A DNA stretch of 64,000 bases from an uncultured Candidatus Saccharibacteria bacterium (GTDB lineage Bacteria > Patescibacteriota > Saccharimonadia > Saccharimonadales > AWTP1-31). The stretch covers positions 39,869-103,868 of the forward strand of contig CAZXTE010000004.1 of assembly GCA_964643545.1 (NCBI GenBank). The letters are read 5' to 3'. Below are positions 3,345 to 37,000 of the stretch, one piece after another. The position numbers were made by a program, and so were the translations under genes. The notes under the pieces are model-generated. The model searched no databases, was not told the origin of the DNA, and worked only from the letters and a program-made list of their open reading frames with translations. Every line of letters begins with the position of its first letter. The stretch's first letter is position 1.

Positions 3345-6300
3345 ATGGTGTCTGGACTTACAGCTGGCGATTTTGTTCACCTTCATAATCATACACAGTA
3401 CAGCCTGCTGGATGGCCTGACAAAGCTCCCTGCACTTATTGAATACGTAAAAGAATCGGGCATGACATCTGTGGCCATGACGGACCATGGGACCATGTCA
3501 GGAGCCATAGAGTTTTACAAAGTTGCAAATGCACACGGGGTTAAGCCCATCATAGGCATGGAAACGTACGTTTCTCCAAGACAACATACGGACAAAGATC
3601 CTTCCAAAGACAAAACGCCCTATCACTTGATCATATTAGCCATGAACAACACGGGCTATGAAAATCTTATGCGATTAAGTACGATAGCTAATCTCCAGGG
3701 GTTCTATTACAAGCCACGTGTTGATCATGAATTGCTAGAAAAATATAACGAGGGCTTAATTGTTCTCAGCGGCTGTATAGGGGGAGAGGTTGGCGATCGG
3801 CTCCGTCAAGGACAATATGAGCAAGCGAAACAGATAGCCGCTTGGTATAAAGAAGTATTCGGCGATCGCTATTACCTCGAGGTTCAGGATCACGGCCACC
3901 CCGAGCATAGCTCGGCATGGGATGAACAGGTGGCTATTACAGAGCAAACATTTCAGCTAGGTCGTGAACTATCCATCGAATGTGTTGTTACGTGTGATGC
4001 GCATTACTTACGTCATGCGGATCAAGAAGCACACGAGATATTGCTTTGTGTGCAGACTGGTTCCTTCTTGAGTGATGAAAAACGCATGAGCTTGAGCCAA
4101 TTTGAGCTTCATGTTACAGACCCAAAGGAAATCATTGAGCGTTGGTCAAAAGAACACCCAGAGGTTATTCGAAATACAAAGCTGATTGCCGACCGTTGCA
4201 GTGTAGATATACAACTTGGGAAAATTCTAATTCCGAAATTTCCGGTTCCTGCGAACGAGACTGAGGAAAGCTATTTGCACGGGATGGTTTATCGTGGCTT
4301 GGCGAGACGGTACGGCAACATAAGTGAAAAGGATGCCGAAAACCTAACAATAGCCGAGGCAATGAAAACATTACCCCAAGATATACAGCAGCGAGCAGAA
4401 TATGAGCTCAGAGTCATTAAGGATATGGGTTTTAATGGATACTTTCTGATTATTTCAGACTTTATAAATTGGGGGAAAGATCAAGGTATCGTTTTTGGGC
4501 CAGGGCGCGGCTCGGCAGCCGGTTCAATTATTGCGTATGCACTTAAAATAACAGAGCTCGACCCAATGCGTTATGACTTGCTATTTGAGCGCTTCTTAAA
4601 CCCCGACAGAATAAGTATGCCCGATATTGATATAGATATTCAGGACTCTCGGCGCGATGAAGTTATCCAGTACTGCGTTGAAAAATATGGCACAGAACGA
4701 GTTGCAAATATAGTCACCTTTGGCCGTATGGCTGCTCGTAACGCGGTCAGAGACGTTGCACGGGTGCTGCAGGTGCCATACACAGAGGCGGATCGTTTGG
4801 CAAAAATGATTCCACCTCCCGTGCAAGGCAGGCATATACTTCTTGCAACGTCGCTGGTGGAAAATCAAGATTTAAAAAAAGAGTACGAAACCAGTGAGAC
4901 AGCCCGACGGGTGTTTGATTTAGCCGTTCAATTAGAGGGTACTATTCGCTCCCACGGTGTACACGCGGCCGGGGTTGTTATTGCACCCGATGAACTTGTT
5001 AAGTTTGCCCCTCTAGAAATGGCCCAGAAAGGGGTTGTGGCAACCCAGTACTCTATGAATCCTATTGAGGAGCTTGGGCTGTTAAAAATGGATTTCCTCG
5101 GATTATCTAACTTAACGACGATAAAAAACACGTTACGAATTGTAAAAAAAGTCTACAACGAAGACATAGATATTGATCGATTACCATTGGATGATAAAGA
5201 GACATTCCAATTACTGCAGAGAGGAGACACGACAGGCGTTTTTCAATTAGAGTCGTCTGGGATGAAGCGATATCTACGCGAATTAAAGCCAAGCGTTTTT
5301 GAAGATATTGTTGCAATGGTCGCACTGTATAGGCCGGGGCCGATGCAGTTTATAGAGGATTTTATTGAACGAAAACATGGCAAACGGACAATAAAATATC
5401 TTCACCCAAAAATGGAAGCAGCGCTTAAAAATACCTACGGTGTTTTGGTTTACCAAGAACAGGTGATGCAGATCAGCAAAGATCTTTCTGGATTCACGGG
5501 CGGGCAGGCAGATACGCTTAGAAAGGGAATTGCAAAAAAAATTCCCGAGGTATTGGCAAAAATGAAGCTAGAATTTACTGAAGGTGCTATTAAGCACTCA
5601 GGTGCAGACCCTGCATTAATGGAAAAATTTTGGAAGCAGTTGGAAGATTTCGCGGCGTACTGTTTTAATAAAAGTCATGCTGCTTGCTATGCGCTAATCG
5701 CATACCAAACAGCATACCTAAAGGCCCATTTTCCAGCTGCGTTTATGTCTGCCCTTATGACGAGTGACTTCGACGATACTGATCGATTGGCAATAGAGAT
5801 TAACGAGTGTAATCATATGGGAATTAAGGTTTTGCCGCCAGATATCAACGAATCATTTGGAGAATTTGCGGTTGTGCCCAAAAAAATGGAAATTCGATTT
5901 GGCCTGCATGCAGTCAAGAATGTTGGATCGAACGCCGTGGATGAGATCCTTGCGCAACGAGGGAATGGAAAATTTAAAAGTCTCGAAGATTACTTCGAGC
6001 GTGTTAATGTTCGTACGGTAAACCGTAAAAATCTTGAAAGTCTTACGAAGTCCGGTGCATTTGATTCGTTTACATCTAGGGATCGGTTGCTTGCTAATCT
6101 AGACACGTTGCTTGCTTACAGTAATAGGCTACAGAAGGAGAAGGCAAGTGGCCAGACAGACCTTTTTGGTTCCATGGAAGATGCCGCCGCACGGGAGATA
6201 AAACCAAAGCTTAAACTTGTAGAACCGGCTGTAGAGTCTTCCCAGCGTGAGCAGTTGCAATGGGAAAGAGAATTATTGGGTTTATACCTCTCTCAACACC

Positions 6301-6967: not shown

Positions 6968-8188
6968 CTATAGAATAACGCCAACAGTTCGGCTGACAAC
7001 CATGCATAACCAGACGAAACTAATAATCGTTACGTCAAGCACCGCATGATGAAGTATGTAGCGTTCACCTTTGACGAGCATTTTGTGTAGTGCCTTGCTG
7101 TGTTTCATGATCAGATATGTTATGCCGATGCCTGCTAGTAAGCTATAAAGCGTGGAGATCCAGGGCAGCGAACCTTTTGTAAGTAAGTCTATGCGACTTA
7201 TCTTTGTTGAGGTTGGTGCTGGCGTAACAGTGTCATCTTTATTGGCTGTTTGATTTGAGGTTGGTTCTGGTTTGCTCATCGTTACATCTACGGTATTTGC
7301 GTCACTCGCAACAGTCAGAACTTGTTCGCGCTTATTGCCATCGATCTGAATGGTTGCAGTGTGTTCGCCTGCCTCTACATTATCAAAACTGGCAATCCCA
7401 TCTTTGTCCGTTACGGCATCACGCGGTTCAGAGTGCAGCGTTACTTTTACGCCTGAAATCGGTTTAGATGTTTTGTCAACGACCAAAATACGGACAATGC
7501 GCTTAGGGGCCTCAGTTGGTGCGGTAGCGGGGATTGTCTTCTGTGTTGGCGCGAATGTTTTTGGTGTCGGGGTTACAGAGGGTTTAGCGGAAAGTGCCGG
7601 TATATATGGAGAGGCATACATGGCAACTACCACAGTTTGCTGCCCGCTACTATTAAAATTCGATCCGTTCGCAAAGCCAAAACCAACTTCCGTATAATCT
7701 TTGCTCAGTAAATTCGCCCGGTGTGACGCGCTGTTCATCCACCCAATAACCGTGTCTGAACTTGTTGCAAAACCATATGCCAAGTTTTCGCCTGCCTTGC
7801 TGTAACTATAACCTGCATTGGTGATAAACACCCAAGGTGGGCTTCCATCTGGAGTGGTATGTGACCAGTAGTTGTGGGCAATCATATCGTTTGCTTTGGC
7901 TTGTGCAGCGTCAGATAGCTTTGCATTTATGCCCAGGCTGGCAGCACCATTGTTCGTTCGTTGTTGATTCGTCGCAGATAATAAACCAGTACTGCTCATC
8001 TCTGTTGCATATGAAAGCACTTCGCGGTCTACCCGCATAACCCGCGGTTGCCAGAGCGACAGCCCCATACCGAGAGATAAAATTACAACCAATGGTAAAT
8101 AGGGCGTATAAACACGCATAAAGTGATTTGTTCGCTTCTGGTGCTGCCCATGGCGTTTTTTGTGCATGGTTGAACGGTTTCCAGACAT
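6968..8188 (-). CDS. Membrane-anchored CAP/SCP (PR-1-like, YkwD-type) domain protein with Pro/Thr linker and Ig/carboxypeptidase-regulatory-like domain
   Basis: Basic N-terminus plus a TM helix. CAP-like core (LSDAAQAKANDM..NYWSHT...GENLAYGF...IGWMNSASHRANLL...VGFG). PT-rich linker, then a beta-rich module (RILVVDKTSKPISGVKVTLHSE...DGIASFDNVEAGEHT). Two C-terminal hydrophobic helices. Confidence 0.6.
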   Translation of the reverse strand: MSGNRSTMHKKRHGQHQKRTNHFMRVYTPYLPLVVILSLGMGLSLWQPRVMRVDREVLSYATEMSSTGLLSATNQQRTNNGAASLGINAKLSDAAQAKANDMIAHNYWSHTTPDGSPPWVFITNAGYSYSKAGENLAYGFATSSDTVIGWMNSASHRANLLSKDYTEVGFGFANGSNFNSSGQQTVVVAMYASPYIPALSAKPSVTPTPKTFAPTQKTIPATAPTEAPKRIVRILVVDKTSKPISGVKVTLHSEPRDAVTDKDGIASFDNVEAGEHTATIQIDGNKREQVLTVASDANTVDVTMSKPEPTSNQTANKDDTVTPAPTSTKISRIDLLTKGSLPWISTLYSLLAGIGITYLIMKHSKALHKMLVKGERYILHHAVLDVTIISFVWLCMVVSRTVGVIL

Positions 8189-16976: not shown

Positions 16977-17003
16977 CTAGCACTCTTGACTGACGAGTGC
17001 TAA
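16977..17003 (+). promoter_or_regulatory. CIRCE-type inverted repeat (HrcA operator) overlapping the clpC promoter
   Basis: CTAGCACTC-ttgactgac-GAGTGCTAA against consensus TTAGCACTC-N9-GAGTGCTAA. The spacer begins with TTGACT, and TATTAT follows at 17008-17013. Confidence 0.8.
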
Positions 17004-17046
17004 CTGGTATTATGGTAGTAGTGTATAAAACACCAGAAGAACTACT

Positions 17047-19515
17047 ATGAATAACTCACCAGACTTTCAAGAATTTTTGAACCACCTAACTGAGAATGCG
17101 CTCAATAGTTTGAAGCATGCAGACGGTATCGCTCGCAGTTTCGGGAGCGCTTATATTGGCACAGAGCACTTATTGCTTGGCGTGTTAGCTCAGGAGCCTA
17201 GTATGGGCGCGAAAATGCTAGAAGATGCTGGTGTTACGTTGGAGCGCGCTCGGCTAGCGCTGAATCTAACACCGAAGACAATGGTGATAAATATGGGTGC
17301 GAAAGGCCTGAGTGAAACTGCGAAGCTCACATTAAAGATGGCCTATGAGGTTGCGCAAGACTATTCACAGGATTTTTGTGGAACGGAACACATTGTGTAC
17401 AGCATTTTGACTCAGAAGAATGCCCGAGCGACGATTCTGCTACGGGATATGAATATAGATGTAGAGAACTTAACCAATCAAGTAGAGCAGTTTTTGAATA
17501 GACAGCAAGCAAGCGATGGATCTAGCAGTACGCGACGACGTGGGAAGAAACAGCGCAAGACGGCACTTGATTTCTTCGGGACAGATTTAACGGCCCAGGC
17601 ACGTGATCAAAAACTTGATCCTGTAGTGGGGAGAGAGCCACAAATTCGTAGGCTTATCACCATTCTCAATCGACGCACCAAGAATAACCCAGTATTGATT
17701 GGTGACCCAGGTGTTGGTAAAACGGCGATTGTTGAAGGACTTGCGCAGCGCATTATCTCGGAAGATGTCCCCGATAGTCTGCTTGATAAGCGTATTGTCA
17801 TGCTTGATCTAGCGGGTATGATCGCTGGTACAAAATACCGCGGTGAATTTGAAGAACGACTCAAAAAGGTTATGAGCGAACTAGAGAACGATCGTCACAC
17901 CATTATTTTTATCGACGAGATGCATTTAATTGTTGGTGCAGGTGCAGCAGAAGGAGCAATGGATGCGGGAAACATCTTGAAGCCTGCCCTTGCACGTGGC
18001 AAGATCCAGGTTATTGGGGCAACGACAACTGACGAATATACAAAGCACATTGAAAAAGATGCAGCACTAGAGCGTAGGTTCCAGCCAATTTTGGTTCCTG
18101 AAGCAACAGATGGAGAGACCCTGGCAATACTAAAAGGACTCCGTAAACATTATGAGAAATTCCATCATGTCACTGTCAGTGACGAGGTACTAGAAGATAC
18201 GGTCCGACTTAGTAGCCGTTATATCAACGATCGATTCATGCCAGACAAAGCGATTGACTTACTTGATGAGACTGCGGCGCATCTTCGTGTTGATAAGGGC
18301 AGGACATCACCCGAAGTTCGAAGTCTTCAGAAAGAATTAAAGCTTGTTCAGTCAAAAATTGATGAGGCTGTAGATAATGAGAACTATGAGAGTGCCGCTA
18401 AGCACAAAACACGTGCCAGCCAGATAGAGAAGGAACTGAAAGCGCTGCAAAGCTCTGGAAAAGTGGCAAATAAGCTTGTTATGCACAGCGACGATGTTGC
18501 TGAAGTTGTTGCGCGTTGGACAGGCGTGCCTGTGCAGAAAGTTATTCGAAGCGAAGCAAAGTACCTGCTAAATTTAGAAAAGACGATCGGCAAGCATATT
18601 GTTGGTCAGGATGAGGCAGTAACGGCCGTAGCGAAAGCAATTAGGCGTAGTCGCTCTGGGATTAGCAACGAGCGACGACCAATCGGTTCGTTTGTATTCC
18701 TTGGCCCAACGGGTGTCGGCAAAACCGAGTTGGCTCGTGTTTTGGCTCGAGAATTCTTTGGCAGCAAAGATGCACTTATCAAAATTGACATGAGTGAGTT
18801 TAGCGAACGTCACACGACGTCGCGTCTCGTTGGCGCTCCAGCAGGATATGTTGGTTACGATGAAGGTGGGCAGCTTACAGACAAAATTCGTAGGCAACCA
18901 TATAGTCTTGTGTTGTTTGACGAGATTGAAAAAGCGCATCCAGAGGTTTTTAACATCTTACTGCAAATACTTGAAGATGGTGTGCTTACAGATGCTAAGG
19001 GTCGACAGATTGATTTTTCCAACACCATTATTATTATGACGAGCAATGTTGGTGCAGAGAAGCTGCAACAAGAGGCAGTCCTAGGGTTCCAGGCAACGTC
19101 TAAAGCCGATCAAAAAGACCTAGATCAACTACACAGTCGGAATAAGGATAAAGTACAGGGCGAATTAAAAAAACTTATGCGTCCAGAATTGCTTAATAGG
19201 ATTGATAAGGTTGTGGTCTTCCGTGCATTAACCAAAAGGGATGCACTCCATATTCTTGATCTACAGATCGCCGAGTTACGAGAACGGCTCATTAAGCATG
19301 GCCTTGGCCTGGAGGTTGACGCAAAAGCCAAGAAACATCTACTACAGCAAGGTTACGATTCGCATAATGGTGTGCGACCTATGCGTCGTCTGTTGCAAGA
19401 CACTGTCGAAGATCATATTGCGCTGTCGCTTCTTGATAAGCTGTATGGTAAGGGCGATATTGTACAAATAGGCGTCCGAGACAAGGATCTTACGTACTCG
19501 TTAGCACAAGAGTAA
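17047..19515 (+). CDS. clpC: ATP-dependent Clp protease ATP-binding subunit ClpC (class I AAA+)
   Basis: 822 aa. Double Clp_N repeat, two Walker A sites ([16 protein letters not shown]), UVR-like linker ([23 protein letters not shown]), ClpB_D2-small C-terminus. Confidence 0.93.
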
Positions 19516-19532
19516 TAGTTTATACTACACAC

Positions 19533-20507
19533 ATGACTCGAAAGAATCGCTCCGCACTGTTTGGTGGCGCAGTATCTTGTTTGATAATTGCGGGCAGCGT
19601 ATTCATGTTCTTCCAAAGGCAGGCCTTGTTAGACTGGTTTGCACTTAGAAATTATTCAGCACCCACACAGGTAGAAAGTTTGGCGCTACAGACGACAATG
19701 GATGCTTATGGGAAAAAAATATTCTATGTTAACCGACCGCAAGTACAGGATAAGGCTCAATTTTATGCAAGTTGTAATGAGAACGAAAAGACGGTTGTAT
19801 TAGGGTGTTACAAAAGTAACGAAGGTATATTTTTGTTGCAGGTTACCGATGCTCGACTCAAAGGGGTGGAGGAGGTCACAGCAGCACATGAAATGTTGCA
19901 TGCAGGCTATGAGCGCCTTGGCGGAACAGAAAAAGCTGACGTGCGGCGTATGGTGCTTGCTGCTTATGACCAGCTTGTTGACCCCGGTATTAGGGAAAAG
20001 ATTGATCTATATAAAGCTGCGAACGCAGATATACCAAACGAGCTTCATTCAATCTTAGGTACTGAAGTCGAAGACTTGCCTGCAGGATTAGAGCAGTATT
20101 ACCGTAAATACTTCACTAATCGCAAGCGTGTCGTAACTTTCGCGAACACCTACAAGGCTGAATTCCAAAAAAGAAAAGACACACTTAATGATTACAATGC
20201 GAAATTAGACAATTTGCAGCGCGAAATCGAAAGCAACAACAGCGTGCTTGATGGGCAAATAGGCGTACTGGAGAGTGAGCAGAAGCGCCTCAGTAGTCTT
20301 CGTGCATCTGGAGATATTGCAACATACAATGCAAGTGTAAACCCATACAATCAGAAAGTTAGCACCTATAACGCACTTGTTAGCAAAACAAGAGCCATGA
20401 TTGATACATACAAGGCGCTTCTCGAACAGCGTAATCAAGTGGCCGAGGAGGCACAAGAATTAACACGCGCATTGGATAGTCGAATATTCACTCGGGAACA
20501 ATTGTAG
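19533..20507 (+). CDS. Hypothetical membrane-anchored protein with HExxH motif and C-terminal coiled coil
   Basis: N-terminal TM helix (GGAVSCLIIAGSVFMFF). AAHEMLHAGYE is a candidate zinc-protease motif. Heptad-like C-terminal third. TATACT-N6-ATG start context. Confidence 0.5.
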   Translation: MTRKNRSALFGGAVSCLIIAGSVFMFFQRQALLDWFALRNYSAPTQVESLALQTTMDAYGKKIFYVNRPQVQDKAQFYASCNENEKTVVLGCYKSNEGIFLLQVTDARLKGVEEVTAAHEMLHAGYERLGGTEKADVRRMVLAAYDQLVDPGIREKIDLYKAANADIPNELHSILGTEVEDLPAGLEQYYRKYFTNRKRVVTFANTYKAEFQKRKDTLNDYNAKLDNLQREIESNNSVLDGQIGVLESEQKRLSSLRASGDIATYNASVNPYNQKVSTYNALVSKTRAMIDTYKALLEQRNQVAEEAQELTRALDSRIFTREQL

Positions 20508-20528
20508 TCTGGTACACTGGTTGTATCT

Positions 20529-21878
20529 ATGGGGAAACAGAATGTTGAGTTTGCATGCACGAGCTGTGGTGCCAAAAGCAGTACCTGGTCAGGACGGTGT
20601 CATGTGTGTGGTGAATGGAACACCCTACAAGAGCAAACGCCGCTCGTATCTGTAAGAACAGGCAAGGGAAGAGCTATAAGTCTATCAACTCAGAATGTGC
20701 AGGGGGCAATAAAAAGCGATAAAGTGCCTCGCTTACAGACCAATGTTACAGAAGTTGACGTAGTGCTTGGCGGGGGGTTCGTGCCCGGGAGCATAAGTTT
20801 GTTTGCCGGCCAGCCCGGTATCGGCAAGAGTACGCTGTTGCTCCAGCTCGCAGATGCTGTCGCGCATAATCATTCTGTATTGTATGTCAGTGGCGAGGAA
20901 TCAGTTCATCAGGTGGCCCTACGTGCGGAACGGCTGAAAACTTCGTCTGCAAAACTACAGCTTGCAACAGCCTCGTCTGCCGACGATATTGCGCGCACTA
21001 TTTTATCGGGGGACTATAGTCTTGTGGTTGTTGACTCCATTCAGACGGTTAGCGTGGATGCAGTTGCATCGGCGCCTGGAACAGTGAGCCAAATCACAAA
21101 CAGTACCCACATTCTTGGTGAAGCAGCGAAAGCCAGCAACACTGCCCTAGTGCTTGTGGGCCATGTTACCAAGGAAGGCTCTATAGCTGGCCCGAAAGTA
21201 CTCGAGCACGTTGTAGACGTTGTTATGCAGCTTGAAGGTGATCGTTATGGTGGGTTTAAAGTGCTCCGGGGTGTCAAAAATAGATACGGATCAACTAACG
21301 AAACTGGCATTTTTGAAATGCACGATAACGGTTTGCAGCCAGTGGCAAATCCTTCCGCTGCATTGCTCGCAGAGCGGCAAGTGACTGATGGCTCTGTTGT
21401 CCTGGCGACGATCGAAGGAAGCCGACCCCTTCTCGTTGAGGTGCAGGCATTGGTGAATAAAACAAGCTATGGCTACCCAAAACGAGCAGCAAGCGGTATT
21501 GACCTTAATAGAGTTAATCTACTGGTGGCCATGCTAGAGCGTAGAACAAAATTAAATCTATCGGATCAAGATATATACATCAATATAGTAGGTGGCATTC
21601 GAATTAGCGAACCGGCTGCAGATTTAGCAGTTTGCATGGCCATTGCCTCGGCCAGTAAAGGACTACAGCTAAAAAAGAACGCCGCTGTCTTTGGCGAGGT
21701 AGGGCTCTCTGGCGAGATTCGTCATGTGCCATTTATAGAAAAGCGTGTAGCAGAAGCACGTAAGCTCGGTTTCAGCGGGGCGATAGGCCCTGTACAAAGG
21801 TCCGGGAAGAAACTTGCCGGTATGTACGGTGTTGCAGATATCCGCTCTGCACTCAATCAATTCCTAGAGAAAGACTAA
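20529..21878 (+). CDS. radA: DNA repair protein RadA/Sms
   Basis: C4 zinc finger (CTSCGAKSSTWSGRCHVCGEWNT), Walker A GQPGIGKST, KNRYGS motif, Lon-protease-like C-domain. Confidence 0.95.
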   Translation: MGKQNVEFACTSCGAKSSTWSGRCHVCGEWNTLQEQTPLVSVRTGKGRAISLSTQNVQGAIKSDKVPRLQTNVTEVDVVLGGGFVPGSISLFAGQPGIGKSTLLLQLADAVAHNHSVLYVSGEESVHQVALRAERLKTSSAKLQLATASSADDIARTILSGDYSLVVVDSIQTVSVDAVASAPGTVSQITNSTHILGEAAKASNTALVLVGHVTKEGSIAGPKVLEHVVDVVMQLEGDRYGGFKVLRGVKNRYGSTNETGIFEMHDNGLQPVANPSAALLAERQVTDGSVVLATIEGSRPLLVEVQALVNKTSYGYPKRAASGIDLNRVNLLVAMLERRTKLNLSDQDIYINIVGGIRISEPAADLAVCMAIASASKGLQLKKNAAVFGEVGLSGEIRHVPFIEKRVAEARKLGFSGAIGPVQRSGKKLAGMYGVADIRSALNQFLEKD

Positions 21879-30464: not shown

Positions 30465-30549
30465 GCGGATGTGGTGGAATTGGTAGACACGCTAGCCTTA
30501 GGAGCTAGTGCCGAAAGGCGTGAAGGTTCAAGTCCTTTCATCCGCACCA
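30465..30549 (+). tRNA. tRNA-Leu (anticodon UAG), type II with long variable arm, CCA encoded
   Basis: Manual cloverleaf. Acceptor GCGGATG/CATCCGC. 3-bp D stem with GAATTGGTAGA loop. Anticodon stem CTAGC/GCTAG with loop CTTAGGA. Variable arm TGCCGAAAGGCGT. T arm GAAGG-TTCAAGT-CCTTT. Discriminator A followed by CCA. Confidence 0.93.
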
Positions 30550-30570
30550 AGAATTGATACAATACTGGTA

Positions 30571-31875
30571 ATGACTTTATCTACACAACCATACAAGGGT
30601 GCGCGTGACTTCTACCCAGAAGATAAGCGACTCCAAAAGTACTTATTTTCTACTATGCGTCGCGTGGTAGAGAGTTTTGGCTACGAAGAGTACGACGCAC
30701 CAATACTTGAGTCTTTAGATCTCTACACTGCCAAGACAGGTGAAGAGATCGTTAACGAGCAAACCTATGCATTCAAGGACAGGGGTGGCCGGTCTGTTGT
30801 TATTCGTCCAGAAATGACACCATCCGTCAGCCGTATGGTGGCTGGGCGAAGGCAGGAGTTAGGGTATCCTGTGCGTTGGTATAGTATCCCAAATTTATGG
30901 CGCTATGAACGCCCGCAGCGTGGCCGCCTTCGTGAGCACTGGCAATTGAATGTAGATATTTTCGGGCTAGCTGGTTTAGAGGCAGAACACGAAGCGATTA
31001 CAGTCGGTGCATCGATATTGAATGCATTTGGTGCAAAACAGAGTATGTATGGCATACGGATTAATAGCCGGCAGCTCATTAATCATTTTTTGGGTAATGT
31101 TCTAGGTTTGGATGCTGTCCAGCAGTTAACAACTATCAAGCTGATCGATCGGATGCACAAGATGGAGCATGTTGCATTTGTGGCGAGTATCGATGCTATT
31201 TTAGTACCCTCCCAGCGGGAAGCCGGCGTAGGCGAGCGTATCCTCGCGTTCCTGAACGCACAATCTCTTACTGAACTTCCTGATGATCTTCGTGCTCATG
31301 AGTCTACAAAAAAAATAATCGCCCTGCTTGCAATGCTAGAGGAAAGTTCTATCCATAATGCACGTTTTGACGCGACCGTTATGCGTGGATTTGATTACTA
31401 CACAGATATCGTTTTCGAGATGTTTGATACAAATCCAGAGAATAACAGGGCAATGTTCGGCGGCGGCAGGTACGACGGGCTAGTTGGTCTGTTTGGCGTA
31501 GAGCCTGTCCCTACTGTGGGGTTTGGACTTGGTGACGTTACTTTGGCGAATTTTATCGAGAGCCACGGTCTTACCCCAAAGCTTCGCTCGGAAACAGACG
31601 TGTATGCCATACTTGTTGGTGATGTGTATAAAAAAGCACAAAACGTAGTGAGCGCGTTGCGCGAAGAAGGCGTTCGCGTTGCTGTAGATGCCACGGGCCG
31701 CAAGCCAGCCCAGCAGATTAAAGTGGCGTTAAAAAAAGAGATTCCTTACGTACTTTTCATTGGTGATAAAGAGCTAGAAGAGGGGCGATACACGCTCAAG
31801 GAGCTTGCATCGAGCAATGAACAGATGCTGAGCGTTGAGCGAATCGTCAGCGCCGTCCTAGACAGCCGCCACTAA
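30571..31875 (+). CDS. hisS: Histidyl-tRNA synthetase
   Basis: Class II motifs (YKGARDFYPED, FRYERPQRGRLREHWQ, GGGRYD) and an anticodon-binding C-domain. ATG 30571 lies 7 nt after TACAAT. The track start at 30508 lies inside the tRNA. Confidence 0.92.
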   Translation: MTLSTQPYKGARDFYPEDKRLQKYLFSTMRRVVESFGYEEYDAPILESLDLYTAKTGEEIVNEQTYAFKDRGGRSVVIRPEMTPSVSRMVAGRRQELGYPVRWYSIPNLWRYERPQRGRLREHWQLNVDIFGLAGLEAEHEAITVGASILNAFGAKQSMYGIRINSRQLINHFLGNVLGLDAVQQLTTIKLIDRMHKMEHVAFVASIDAILVPSQREAGVGERILAFLNAQSLTELPDDLRAHESTKKIIALLAMLEESSIHNARFDATVMRGFDYYTDIVFEMFDTNPENNRAMFGGGRYDGLVGLFGVEPVPTVGFGLGDVTLANFIESHGLTPKLRSETDVYAILVGDVYKKAQNVVSALREEGVRVAVDATGRKPAQQIKVALKKEIPYVLFIGDKELEEGRYTLKELASSNEQMLSVERIVSAVLDSRH

Positions 31876-31916: not shown

Positions 31917-33200
31917 ATGCATATTACACTTACAAAAAACACACCAACGAGCGTAACTATTGGCGTCGTGGCAGACGACGATACGTTAAAGAGCATCAAA
32001 ACCGCTGTTCTACGCAAACTTAACACCCCTGACTTAAAGGTGCCAGGTTTTCGAGCCGGGAAAATTCCTTTGGAAATGGTTGAAAAGCATGTTAATCCTG
32101 AACTATTACAAACAGAGTTTATCGATACGTTACTTAATCACGCGTACGCGCAGGCCATTACAAAAGAACAACTCCGCACGGTTGGCCAGCCAGAAGTGAA
32201 TCTTAAAAAATTTGTACCGTTTTCAACCGCTGAATTTGATATAAAAACAGATGTTATTGGCGAAGTCACGTTGCCGGATTACGCAAAGATTAAATTAGCA
32301 AAGCAGAAGGCAGTTGTTGAGCAGTCAGAGGTAAAAGATGTAATTGTATCTTTGCAACGCCGCTTGGCTACAAAAACTGATGTTTCCCGGGCTGCAAAAG
32401 ACGGGGATGAAGTTTGGATTGATTTCAAGGGTGTTGATGAAAAGGGTGCACCTGTCGGAGGAGCAGACGGAACAGATTATCCGCTGCTGCTTGGAAGCAA
32501 CACTTTCATCCCTGGTTTTGAGCCCGAGCTATTAGGTATACAGCCAACAGAGTCGAAGTCATTTACTATTCCTTTTCCAAAGGACTACGGCGTGCGTTCA
32601 CTACAAGGGAAGCGTGTGACGTTCACTGTCACGTGTAAAAAGGTGCAGGAAGTTGTGCTGCCAAAACCTAATGACGAGTTTGCATCTAAGGCCGGGCCAT
32701 TTAAGACCCTGGCTGAACTGAAATCAGACATAAAAAAACAGCTAACTATAGAGAAGCAACGAGAACTTGATGCAAATTATCAGAACGAGCTCATTCGAGA
32801 GATAGCTGCAAAAAGCAGTGTCGCAATTCCTGACACCGTTATCGATCAACAAGTTATCGATGCAGAGAATCAGGAGAAGCAAAATCTTATTAATCGCGGC
32901 CAAACCTGGCAGGAACACTTAGCTGAAGAAAAGCTAACAGAAGAAGAGCATCGTAAAAAGAATCGTCCAGATGCAGAAATGCAAGTAAAAACTGGCGTTG
33001 TTCTTGGTGCTATTGGTGACAAAGAAAAGGTTGTAGTTACGCCGGAAGAAATTGAAATTAGGATTCAGCTATTGAAGGGTCAATATAATGATCCTGGCAT
33101 GCAAGCGGAACTCGACAAACCAGACGCTCGGCAAGATATTGCATCTCGGATTCGTATCGAAAAAATCATTGATGTGCTAGAGAAAAAGATCAAAGCCTGA
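31917..33200 (+). CDS. tig: Trigger factor
   Basis: 427 aa. Ribosome-binding motif GFRAGKIP, FKBP-type PPIase core (FIPGFEPELLG), helical C-domain. Confidence 0.92.
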   Translation: MHITLTKNTPTSVTIGVVADDDTLKSIKTAVLRKLNTPDLKVPGFRAGKIPLEMVEKHVNPELLQTEFIDTLLNHAYAQAITKEQLRTVGQPEVNLKKFVPFSTAEFDIKTDVIGEVTLPDYAKIKLAKQKAVVEQSEVKDVIVSLQRRLATKTDVSRAAKDGDEVWIDFKGVDEKGAPVGGADGTDYPLLLGSNTFIPGFEPELLGIQPTESKSFTIPFPKDYGVRSLQGKRVTFTVTCKKVQEVVLPKPNDEFASKAGPFKTLAELKSDIKKQLTIEKQRELDANYQNELIREIAAKSSVAIPDTVIDQQVIDAENQEKQNLINRGQTWQEHLAEEKLTEEEHRKKNRPDAEMQVKTGVVLGAIGDKEKVVVTPEEIEIRIQLLKGQYNDPGMQAELDKPDARQDIASRIRIEKIIDVLEKKIKA

Positions 33201-33227
33201 CTAGCACTCTTGACATGTGAGTGCCAG
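33201..33227 (+). promoter_or_regulatory. Second CIRCE-type inverted repeat overlapping the clpP promoter
   Basis: CTAGCACTC-ttgacatgt-GAGTGCCAG (15/18 arm positions). The spacer starts with TTGACA. TACCAT at 33234-33239 is 6 nt from the clpP ATG. Confidence 0.7.
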
Positions 33228-33245
33228 TGAAGGTACCATATTTCT

Positions 33246-33854
33246 ATGAACAAGACACACAACTCAGTACTTATACCTACAGTCATAGAGAGTGACGGGC
33301 GCATAGAACGAGCCTATGACATATATAGCCGTTTATTGAAGGATCGTATTATTTTTCTTGGTACAGATGTCAACGAGCACACGGCCAATCTTGTAGTGGC
33401 GCAGCTCTTGTTCTTGCAAGCAGAAGACCCAAAGAAGGACATTTACTTCTACATCAACAGTCCTGGCGGTAGCGTTTATGACGCGCTTGCGATTTACGAC
33501 ACGATGCAGTATGTTGCCAACGATATCCAGACAGTCGGTATAGGCGTGCAGGCATCAGCAGCCGCTTTTTTGCTCAGCTCTGGGACTAAAGGCAAGCGAA
33601 TTATCTTGCCAAATTCAACGGTCATGATTCACCAACCAAGTAGTGGGACCAGGGGTAAAGTAACAGATATGGAAATCGATTTGAAAGAATCTCTTCGGAT
33701 TAAGCAGCGCCTCAGTGACATCATGGCAAAAAATACTGGTCAAACAGTAAAAAAGATTCAATCTGACATGGAACGTGATTACTGGATGACTGCTGAAGAA
33801 GCAAAAAGGTATGGCGTTGTAGACAAGGTCATAAAAAGCCTCAAACAAATATAA
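33246..33854 (+). CDS. clpP: ATP-dependent Clp protease proteolytic subunit
   Basis: 202 aa. Ser-His-Asp triad contexts are present ([31 protein letters not shown]). Confidence 0.95.
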
Positions 33855-34028
33855 TAAAAGACTTGACATTTGTGACTCTTTTGATCAGACTTATAATCAA
33901 GAAGTAGAGTAAGTCGGGCACTGCTAGTTTTGTTACAAAAAACCTAAAAGTCCACTTAGAGATCTTCGTTCGCAGCAAAAACTACAACAAATAATATCTA
34001 CAAATCTAAGCGGAGTACTCTAAAGCAT

Positions 34029-37000
34029 ATGGCAAAAGGCAGCACACCAGCCCGAAAAGAACGAACTTATTTTACAAACAAAAAAGAAGATATTGTTTTA
34101 CCCGACCTAATCAGTCACCAAAATACCTCTTGGCAGTGGCTTGTGGAAGAAGGGCTTGGAGAACTGTTTCACGAAGTCAGCCCAATCGATGACTACACAG
34201 GCACTAAATTATCACTAAACTTTAAGCACTACCACTTTGATCAACCAAAGGTGACAGAGGCGGAAGCTCGCGAAAACAACGTAAGCTATGATGCTCCCCT
34301 TAAGGCTGTCGTTGAGCTTATCAACAAGGTTACAGGAGAAGTAAAAGAACAAGAGATTTATCTCGGTGATTACCCATGGATGACAAGCCGTGGAACATTT
34401 GTCATTAATGGCGCAGAACGCGTAGTTGTAAGCCAGCTGATCCGATCGGCTGGTGTTTTCTTTACGGCAGATGCGGGCGCAACAAAAAATAACTATGGTG
34501 CAAAGGTCATTCCTGGTCGTGGCGCATGGCTTGAATTCGAAACAGCTGCAAATGGTGCGCTGTATGTCAAGATTGATCGAAAGCGAAAAATTGCGGTAAC
34601 AACACTTCTTAAAGCGCTTGGTATGAGCGAGGCTCAGATCAGAGAGGCGTTTGCGCATGTTGATCAGGGCAAGACAAACTATGTTACGGCAACGCTTGAT
34701 AAAGATCCTTCAAAAGGTGTGAATGAAGCGCTCATTGAAGTGTATCGTCGTCTACGCCCGGGCGATCTTGCGACCGTCGACAATGCACGCAACCTGATTG
34801 AGAATATGTTCTACAACTTTAAACGCTTCGATTTCAGTCGCGTTGGTCGTTATAAGATTAACAAACGACTTGATTTAGACATCCCAAACACCACTGAGAA
34901 TCGAGTGATGCGACTTGAAGATTTGATAGCAATTATCGCAGAAATCATTCGTCTTAATAACACACAAGAACCTGCTGACGACATCGATAGTCTGGCAAAT
35001 CGACGCGTAAAATTGGTTGGTGAATTAGTGCAACGACAATTCCGTATTGGTCTATTGCGCATGGAGCGAAATACAAAAGATCGCATGAGCATGAGCGAGA
35101 TAGAAACAGTAACACCTGCTCAGCTGATTAACGCACGGCCAATTGTTGCGGCTGTCCGTGAATTCTTTGCGAGTTCGCAACTTAGTCAATTTATGGATCA
35201 GATTAACCCTCTCAGCGAGCTTGCTCACAAGCGTCGCCTAAGCTCTATGGGCCCTGGTGGTTTAAGCAGAGAGCGTGCTGGGTTTGAAGTTCGCGATGCG
35301 CATGCTACTCATTATGGAAGAATTTGTGCAGTTGAGACCCCGGAAGGTGCAAACATTGGTCTTGTTTTGAATTTGGCCAGTTATGCACGCATTAATGAAT
35401 ATGGTTTTGTTGAGACTCCATATAGAAAAGTAATCAATGCACTTCCTGCTTCTAAAATAGCAGGGGCAATTGCAAGCGCTGACCTTGAGGATGAAAGCGG
35501 AAAAGTGATCGTAAAAGCGAATCAAGTTGTCACTGAGGCTGCCGCAAAGAAACTTGCTGCCATAAAAGGTCAGGCAACATGGCCCGTCAAAGCACGCGTA
35601 ACAAATGATCTTGTCTATCTTGATGCAGCCGCTGAAGACAATGCAGTCATTGCGAGTGCGAGCGAACTCTTGGATCAAGACGGATATTTTGTGAACGAAC
35701 GAGCAAGTGTTCGCAACAGACTTATTGCAGGTGAAGTAGATACGAATGTTGTAACGCACGTTGACGCATCACGACGCCAGATTATTGGTTCGAGTGCAGC
35801 GTTAATCCCATTTATTGAGAAGAATTATGTGTATCGTTCGCTTATGGGCAGTAACCAGCAACGACAGGCGGTTCCACTCATTCGTCCATCTGCACCTGTT
35901 GTAGGTACCGGTATGGAATCTGCAGTTGCTCGCAACTCAGGACAGGTTATTTTGGCCCAGGATGCTGGCGAAGTAACCAGTGCAAGCGCCGACAAGGTAG
36001 TCGTCCAGTATAAAGGCGGTTCAGTTACGTATGAACCACAGCACTTTGTTCGAAGCAACGAGGGCACAAGCATTAATCAAAAAGTCGTTGTTACGACAGG
36101 CGATAAGGTTAAAAAAGGCGACGTCCTTATAGAAGGAATGTCTATTGATGGCGGTGAACTTGCACTTGGAAAAGACCTCTTGGTCGCATTCATGCCATGG
36201 GGCGGTTACAACTTTGAGGATGCGATCATCATTAGTCGAAAGCTAGTAGAAGATGACACGCTAACAAGCATACACATCGTTGATTACATGACGGAGGTTC
36301 GAGAGACAAAACTTGGGCCAGAGATTGTAACGCGAGATATCCCGAATGTCTCGGAAGAAGCGCTACGCCACCTCGATGAAGACGGCATTGTTCGCATTGG
36401 AGCGGAAGTCCACCCTGGAGATATCTTGGTTGGAAAGATCACACCAAAGGGCGAACAAGAGTTAAGTAGCGAAGAGCGATTGCTCCGAGCAATATTTGGT
36501 GAAAAAGCAAAAGAAGTACGCGATACATCTCAGCGAATGAGCAATGGGAAACATGGCAAAGTTGTTGGTGTAAAAATCTTTAGCCGAGAAAATGGACATG
36601 AACTAAAAGCTGGCGTGATTATGCAAATCCAGATCTTCGTTGCCCAAATGCGAAAGATTGCTGTCGGCGACAAGTTGGGTGGACGACATGGTAACAAGGG
36701 TGTTATCGCTCGAATTTTGCCAGTTGAAGACATGCCGTTCACTGCGGATGGAACTCCTGTAGACATTGTTCTAAACCCTCTCGGCGTCCCAAGTCGCATG
36801 AACGTTGGTCAATTGTTTGAGACGCACTTAGGCATGGCAGCACGTGCCCTTGGCATGACGGTAGCCAGCCCATCATTTGATGGCGTTGAAACCAAGAAGA
36901 TACAGGAACTGCTTAAGGAAGCCGGTTTGCCTGAAGATGGTAAGCAACAGCTGTTTGATGGTCGTACGGGTGAATCCTTTAAAGAACGGACTACAGTCGG

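Follow-up and report, generated by a model that had tools for sequence, protein, structure and literature searches.

A putative HrcA operator with an embedded promoter upstream of clpP in a Candidatus Saccharibacteria bacterium

The short region between the trigger factor gene tig and clpP carries a CIRCE-type inverted repeat which likely forms a functional HrcA operator-promoter. The repeat was studied within a stretch of 64,000 nucleotides (the window), together with related loci from other genomes and metagenomes. We propose that clpP has a promoter of the sigma-70 type (TTGACA, 18 nt, TACCAT) with the -35 box inside the 9-nt spacer of the CIRCE element. Under non-stress conditions, a dimer of a short HrcA protein would sit on both arms. 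The -35 box would then be covered together with the upstream half of the spacer DNA, and this occupancy would exclude RNA polymerase from the clpP promoter. As there is no terminator between tig and clpP, bound HrcA might also hinder read-through from tig. Heat or a load of misfolded proteins would inactivate HrcA and let the clpP promoter fire, with transcription starting on or beside the first base of the clpP ATG and giving a leaderless mRNA that would be translated without a Shine-Dalgarno sequence. With a second site at clpC, both parts of the ClpCP protease would join hrcA-grpE-dnaK-dnaJ, hsp20 and groES in the HrcA regulon. HrcA binding at clpP, repression by occlusion, induction under stress and the position of the transcription start are what we infer from the sequence.

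The operator-promoter and its surroundings in the window

The features of the clpP region and of the sister site at clpC are as follows.

31917 to 33200, plus strand: tig (trigger factor; Trigger_N/FKBP_C/Trigger_C), with its TGA stop codon at 33198-33200 adjoining the operator
33201 to 33227, unstranded: predicted HrcA operator, an inverted repeat of the CIRCE type (CTAGCACTC-N9-GAGTGCCAG) made up of the left arm CTAGCACTC (33201-33209), the spacer TTGACATGT (33210-33218) and the right arm GAGTGCCAG (33219-33227)
33210 to 33215, plus strand: -35 hexamer TTGACA, the first six spacer bases of the operator
33234 to 33239, plus strand: -10 hexamer TACCAT, 18 nt past the TTGACA
33246 to 33248, plus strand: ATG start codon of clpP, 6 nt past the TACCAT and predicted transcription start of a leaderless mRNA
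33246 to 33854, plus strand: clpP coding sequence, 202 aa (Pfam CLP_protease, 3e-78; NCBIfam PRK00277, 300 bits, above cutoff)
16977 to 17003, unstranded: sister CIRCE CTAGCACTC-TTGACTGAC-GAGTGCTAA in the clpC promoter
17008 to 17013: -10 box TATTAT of the clpC promoter
17047 to 19515: clpC

The gap between tig and clpP comprises about 46 bp. The CIRCE element ends 18 nt before the clpP ATG and overlaps both the -35 box and the spacer between the -35 and -10 boxes, with its right arm located between the two hexamers. Re-reading the sequence confirmed every coordinate and letter given for this site in the original prediction, including the identity of its left arm with that of the clpC site, the agreement of the right arm at 7/9 positions, and the position of TTGACA within the operator spacer, an arrangement which is also present in related CIRCE sites. 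Compared with the consensus TTAGCACTC-N9-GAGTGCTAA, 15 of the 18 arm positions agree, and the spacer has exactly 9 nt. The core GCACTC-N9-GAGTGC is matched at 12/12 positions and is perfect at the clpC site, too. All three mismatches of the clpP site (C1, C25 and G27) fall on outermost positions. The same bases recur among the 121 related sites listed, C1 in 8 of them and C25 and G27 in 16 each, and an end in ..CAG is found in 5 of these 121, including sites upstream of dnaK, clpP and hsp20.

The -10 hexamer TACCAT matches the consensus at only 4/6 positions. A scan with the promoter consensus returned TTGACA-18-TACCAT at clpP with 10/12 matches; it found 5 sites in the region against 3.9 expected and is by itself not above background. 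The operator stands out clearly: at up to 3 mismatches to TTAGCACTC-N9-GAGTGCTAA, the 64-kb window contains 2 sites where 0.03 are expected, and none of 100 shuffled sequences held two or more. For the core at up to 1 mismatch, 0.16 matches are expected in the window. These numbers bear out the earlier view that the two sites did not arise by chance.

The two sites had also been read as a regulon dedicated to Clp genes. The count of two in 64 kb stands, and the Clp-specific regulon gives way to a general HrcA regulon that includes Clp. CIRCE elements occur only on Clp genes here because the window holds no chaperone genes; its annotation contains no hrcA, dnaK, groEL or hsp20. ClpC has a UVR-type middle domain and an LGF loop for ClpP docking at residues 679-681, and with operators at both genes the whole ClpCP protease is therefore predicted to be under HrcA control.

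The housekeeping genes of the window are gatB, dnaE, nusA, clpC, radA, a PBP gene, tyrS, recG, tRNA-Leu, hisS, tig and clpP, as well as rpoB and rpoC (named by size and position), a ribosomal protein cluster, secY and others. Downstream of clpC lie two further genes.

19533 to 20507, after clpC: coiled-coil protein of 324 aa without family assignment
20529 to 21878, after the coiled-coil gene: radA

The linkage of clpC and radA (17047-21878) recalls the ctsR operon of Firmicutes but lacks ctsR, mcsA and mcsB. On its other side, clpP is followed by rpoB and not by clpX (33854-34029). The positions 33870-33897 hold a promoter-like TTGTGA-16-TATAAT, and inspection of the 64-kb window showed no clpX. 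Upstream of tig, a tRNA gene overlaps the hisS reading frame at the GTG start that had been called for it mechanically.

30465 to 30549: tRNA-Leu(TAG), just upstream of hisS
30508 to 31875: hisS open reading frame as called

The real start of HisRS is probably an internal methionine (MTLSTQPYKG...) about 60 nt downstream of the called GTG.

Conservation at clpP and the lineage-wide module

Among GTDB species representatives, the closest ClpP loci are labelled Candidatus Saccharibacteria, with 84-65% identity (the G+C content of the window is 46%), so that the streptococcal setting in which the site had been framed does not apply. We scanned 80 clpP loci of such representatives for CIRCE elements with up to 4 mismatches and without any selection on spacer content. 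A single match with 0-2 mismatches lies 44-80 nt upstream of clpP in each of L001-L004, L008 and L009, which are six of the eight loci of the Saccharibacteria type. At the same threshold, there was no match in any of the 72 other clpP loci, a set that spans Firmicutes, Nitrospirota, Proteobacteria, further CPR phyla and additional groups. The arms are invariant across the Saccharibacteria loci and the flanks are not alignable. The element tracks clpP whatever the upstream gene, the upstream sequence being different in L003, L008 and L009. A -35-like hexamer lies within the operator at all six of these unselected sites (TTGACC, TTGACT twice, TGGACA twice, and TTGACG), and in L004 the TTGACG is shifted by four bases. 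The predicted functional HrcA site at clpP is thus backed by an orthologous position which, among the 80 clpP loci, is kept in Saccharibacteria only.

Two loci labelled Saccharibacteria, L005 and L044 (ClpP identity 67% and 59%), have no CIRCE within 3 kb. HrcA control of clpP hence seems to be confined to part of the phylum. In L005, clpP directly follows the upstream gene and has a Shine-Dalgarno sequence.

The three deviations from the consensus might suggest that the clpP repeat is a chance palindrome or a decayed relic without function. We give this hardly any probability, in view of the expected count of 0.03 per window, the perfect core, the conservation in 6/8 against 0/72 loci and the placement of all three deviations at positions that vary in other sites.

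To cover a broader range of sequences, metagenome contigs were scanned for TAGCACTCTTGACNNNNGAGTGC, a CIRCE element with embedded TTGAC, which gave at least 121 sites on at least 120 contigs. The first downstream gene was classified by tblastn, using as references ClpP and ClpC of the window and representatives from the matching loci; the HrcA, GroES, Hsp20 and Zn_ribbon_8 references were confirmed by Pfam. The counts below derive from the matches listed in a search that selected for the motif and are not to be read as frequencies.

HrcA: at least 34 sites
DnaK: at least 26 sites
ClpP: at least 12 sites, 63-87% identical to ClpP of the window
ClpC, close orthologues: at least 11 sites, 69-82% identity
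ClpC-like, weak N-domain matches: at least 2 sites
Zn_ribbon_8: at least 5 sites
Hsp20: at least 4 sites
GroES/GroEL: at least 4 sites
ClpB: at least 2 sites
DnaJ: at least 1 site
Other genes: at least 12 sites
Contig end: at least 10 sites

Nearly all of the 99 classified sites among the matches listed have a TAnnnT hexamer 16-18 nt past the embedded TTGAC, which therefore behaves as a genuine -35 box. A -35 box inside the operator, which had been called unusual, is the norm in this lineage, at hrcA, dnaK, clpC, clpP, hsp20 and groES alike, and a CIRCE overlapping a -35 region has a precedent in groEL2 of Myxococcus xanthus.

At five loci (L085, L088, L101, L128, L163) the CIRCE with embedded TTGAC precedes small genes of the Zn_ribbon_8 (FmdB-type) family, often with serine-rich tails. 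Presumably, these genes resemble the HrcA-controlled mycobacterial chaperone Rv0991c/Ruc.

The clpP transcript: leaderless start or read-through

With only 6 nt from the -10 hexamer to the ATG, transcription is predicted to start on the A of the start codon. The N-terminus MNK... is common to ClpP of the window and of L002, L008 and L009, and 33246 is therefore taken as the true start of clpP. The leaderless transcript put forward in the original prediction holds up as a prediction, since a distance of 6-9 nt between -10 and ATG without a Shine-Dalgarno sequence was found at nine loci (the window, L004, L008, L009, L122, L143, L175, L190 and L195), about half of the CIRCE-clpP loci. Orthologues with longer leaders (L001, L002, L102, L183, L189, L193, L198) carry AGGAG, AAGGAGG or similar Shine-Dalgarno sequences. 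The closest relatives of the window (L001-L003) are of the kind with a leader and a Shine-Dalgarno sequence, and the leaderless state is thus variable. In the matches listed, about 15 of the 34 hrcA sites have the ATG 4-9 nt past the -10 box; the leaders at dnaK, clpC and hsp20 sites comprise 30-100 nt or more.

Gene starts of the leaderless type are also enriched in the window. A -10-like hexamer ends 6-8 nt upstream of 9 of its 42 gene starts, compared with 3.4% of all ATG triplets (p = 9e-6). These are the starts at 8188 (minus strand), 11514 (minus strand), 12174, 15676 (minus strand), 19533, 24982, 26253, 31917 and 33246; they have hexamers of the TATACT, TACACT or TAAAAT type and no Shine-Dalgarno sequence, and tig is one of them. 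The ribosomal protein genes of the window have AAGGAG sites instead. Leaderless initiation thus appears to be routine in this genome, and the enrichment points to leaderless mRNAs being common there. At clpP, the sole Shine-Dalgarno-like element, a weak GAAGG, lies at a distance of 12 nt from the ATG, upstream of the predicted transcription start. Taken together, the main clpP mRNA is probably leaderless.

The only serious partial rival accepts the operator and regards the embedded promoter as minor. Expression of clpP would then come mainly from tig read-through, by way of an mRNA with a leader and internal translation, and HrcA bound to the CIRCE would serve as a roadblock or act at the RNA level. 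Several observations are in line with this. Between tig and clpP there is no intrinsic terminator, the sole terminator-like match being a 5-bp stem (1 found, 2.9 expected); the weak GAAGG could serve translation of a longer transcript; the -10 hexamer is imperfect; and expression of lon in Mycoplasma pneumoniae has been reported to come from the tig promoter in combination with a CIRCE element (PMC7737663). However, nearly all related sites retain the order of TTGAC, 16-18 nt and TAnnnT, also where the gene upstream is not tig. Furthermore, clpP loci show either the short distance from -10 to ATG without a Shine-Dalgarno sequence, as in the nine above, or a longer distance with a strong one, and this either/or pattern is predicted by a leaderless start. 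We consider clpP expression mainly by read-through unlikely.

A further alternative takes the repeat as a stem-loop at the 3' end of the tig transcript, as terminator or stabiliser, and not as a DNA operator. The repeat begins 1 nt after the tig stop codon, and as RNA the tig-clpP region folds with -17.5 kcal/mol (z = -1.96). However, the stem is followed by UGAAGGUACC and no U-tract, for which reason an intrinsic terminator of tig was rejected, and an Rfam scan of the tig-clpP intergenic region gave no relevant match. The arms are conserved in sequence, without compensatory changes; the repeat goes with clpP and not with tig in L003, L008 and L009; and hrcA, dnaK and clpC have the identical repeat in front of them whichever gene lies further upstream. 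A function in the tig transcript is accordingly very improbable, and the DNA operator remains the preferred reading.

The repressor and comparison with known systems

The HrcA-like proteins encoded downstream of CIRCE sites have about 230-245 aa and contain PF01628 and PF03444. One subgroup has at least 8000 relatives, of which the best 120 (P0001-P0120) comprise 189-257 aa, nearly all of them 232-257. Several of these short relatives are named at NCBI as coming from Candidatus Saccharibacteria or the Patescibacteria group, and they are labelled there merely as 'transcriptional regulator'. A short hrcA heads the hrcA-grpE-dnaK-dnaJ cluster in the Saccharibacteria MAGs GCA_018062265.1 and GCA_030916705.1 and in related contigs. 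In loci obtained without motif selection (L203-L209), a CIRCE with a TTGAC spacer precedes hrcA with 0-1 mismatch and, in L207-L209, also dnaK with 2 mismatches. A comparison of the proteins of the window with the hrcA contigs gave only matches of paralogous GTPases, and among Logan contigs the exact ClpP sequence was present on just two, of about 6.6 kb each. From these relatives, the genome of the window presumably has an hrcA gene as well.

The hrcA genes at L203:6001-6708 and L208:6001-6726 illustrate that HrcA of Saccharibacteria, with about 235-241 aa, falls about 100 aa below the canonical length (338 aa in PDB 1STZ). Between the promoter CIRCE and the start of hrcA, L203 contains a second, degenerate CIRCE-like repeat TTAGCAAAC-N9-GAGTGATAA at 5973-5999. 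This second repeat is also present in L204-L206 and may represent either a tandem operator or a duplicate in decay.

The short repressor scores 186.7 bits against TIGR00331, just under the cutoff of 197.2, and AlphaFold2 modelling, based on an alignment of 32 sequences, gave no usable structure (mean pLDDT 42). Its length and the score below the cutoff might indicate that the clpP repeat, as a genuine operator, is bound by a regulator other than HrcA. This is most improbable, as the motif is the canonical CIRCE consensus, a CIRCE lies directly upstream of hrcA itself, which is a signature of autoregulation, and the protein retains the C-terminal domain of HrcA and a winged-helix domain; in a search of PDB sequences the latter, at the N-terminus, is the only part aligned to 1STZ (E = 5e-19).

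In Bacillus subtilis, the CIRCE operator follows the promoter and forms part of the transcribed leader, and only two chaperone operons are known as its targets. In contrast, the -35 box here lies inside the operator spacer, and clpP and clpC are among the targets. The classical CIRCE/HrcA system (as cited in PMC6305308 and PMC7737663) consists of the inverted repeat TTAGCACTC-N9-GAGTGCTAA bound by a repressor of the HrcA family. Repeat and repressor family are the same in the present lineage, whose hrcA would likewise be autoregulated and lies in an hrcA-grpE-dnaK-dnaJ cluster, whereas the repressor of Saccharibacteria has about 236 aa and not about 340 aa.

The closest parallel in gene order is M. 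pneumoniae, where a CIRCE is located between tig and lon and the HrcA regulon also takes in clpB, pepA and pip (PMC7737663). Both organisms are genome-reduced, place HrcA on chaperones and on an ATP-dependent protease, and share the order tig-CIRCE-protease. The protease is Lon in M. pneumoniae and not ClpP/ClpC, and in the present case the CIRCE holds its own promoter with a predicted leaderless mRNA. At the clpB promoter of M. gallisepticum, the CIRCE adjoins an extended -10 box (PMC5282649). For groEL2 of M. xanthus, a CIRCE overlapping the -35 region has been described (Zhuo et al. 2018, as cited in PMC9040617). The operator there also overlaps the -35 region of the promoter it controls, but the target is a chaperonin gene with a promoter of the sigma-32 type, a single case and no module of a whole lineage, without a leaderless mRNA. 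A reconstruction for delta-proteobacteria assigns clpP to sigma-32 and not to CIRCE (PMC545781), and for Chlamydia no CIRCE at clpP is listed (PMC8762339).

The CtsR regulon of Firmicutes (the clpC operon, clpP and clpE) resembles the predicted situation in that one heat-labile repressor acts on both clpC and clpP, and clpC is linked to radA in Bacillus as well, but it uses another operator and another repressor family. The CtsR box (tandem heptad GGTCAAANANGGTCAAA) gave 3 matches at 3 mismatches in the window against 2.28 expected, none of them near clpC or clpP. The clpP gene of Streptococcus salivarius is reportedly under dual control by CtsR and HrcA; it is thus an HrcA target as well, but there HrcA acts together with CtsR, whereas no CtsR box above chance level was found here.

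Each single feature of the site has a precedent, and there is no new mechanism involved. Their combination in a stereotyped module across Saccharibacteria, which regularly has clpC and clpP among its targets and is paired with a truncated HrcA, appears to be undescribed. Searches of the available literature returned nothing relevant linking HrcA to Saccharibacteria or Patescibacteria, nor anything for Saccharibacteria concerning leaderless mRNAs.

Gene regulation in Saccharibacteria and the Candidate Phyla Radiation (CPR) is almost unstudied. The clpP site and its relatives provide a concrete predicted regulon, consisting of hrcA, dnaK, clpC, clpP, hsp20 and groES, with a defined promoter-operator architecture, and they lead to the prediction that leaderless mRNAs are common in Saccharibacteria genomes. 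Furthermore, they would be an example of how protease genes come under HrcA in bacteria with reduced genomes, comparable to lon in Mycoplasma. On a broader reading we are evenly divided: the single master regulator of proteostasis in Saccharibacteria, and probably in a wider range of Patescibacteria, may be a truncated HrcA with about 236 aa, controlling chaperones and ClpCP through one module of about 45 bp (arms flanking the -35 box, followed by the -10 box and the start codon) with leaderless, stress-inducible clpP and hrcA mRNAs, and replacing the CtsR and sigma-32 circuits that larger genomes have. If this is true, the module would be an inducible promoter ready for use in the new genetic systems of these epibionts.
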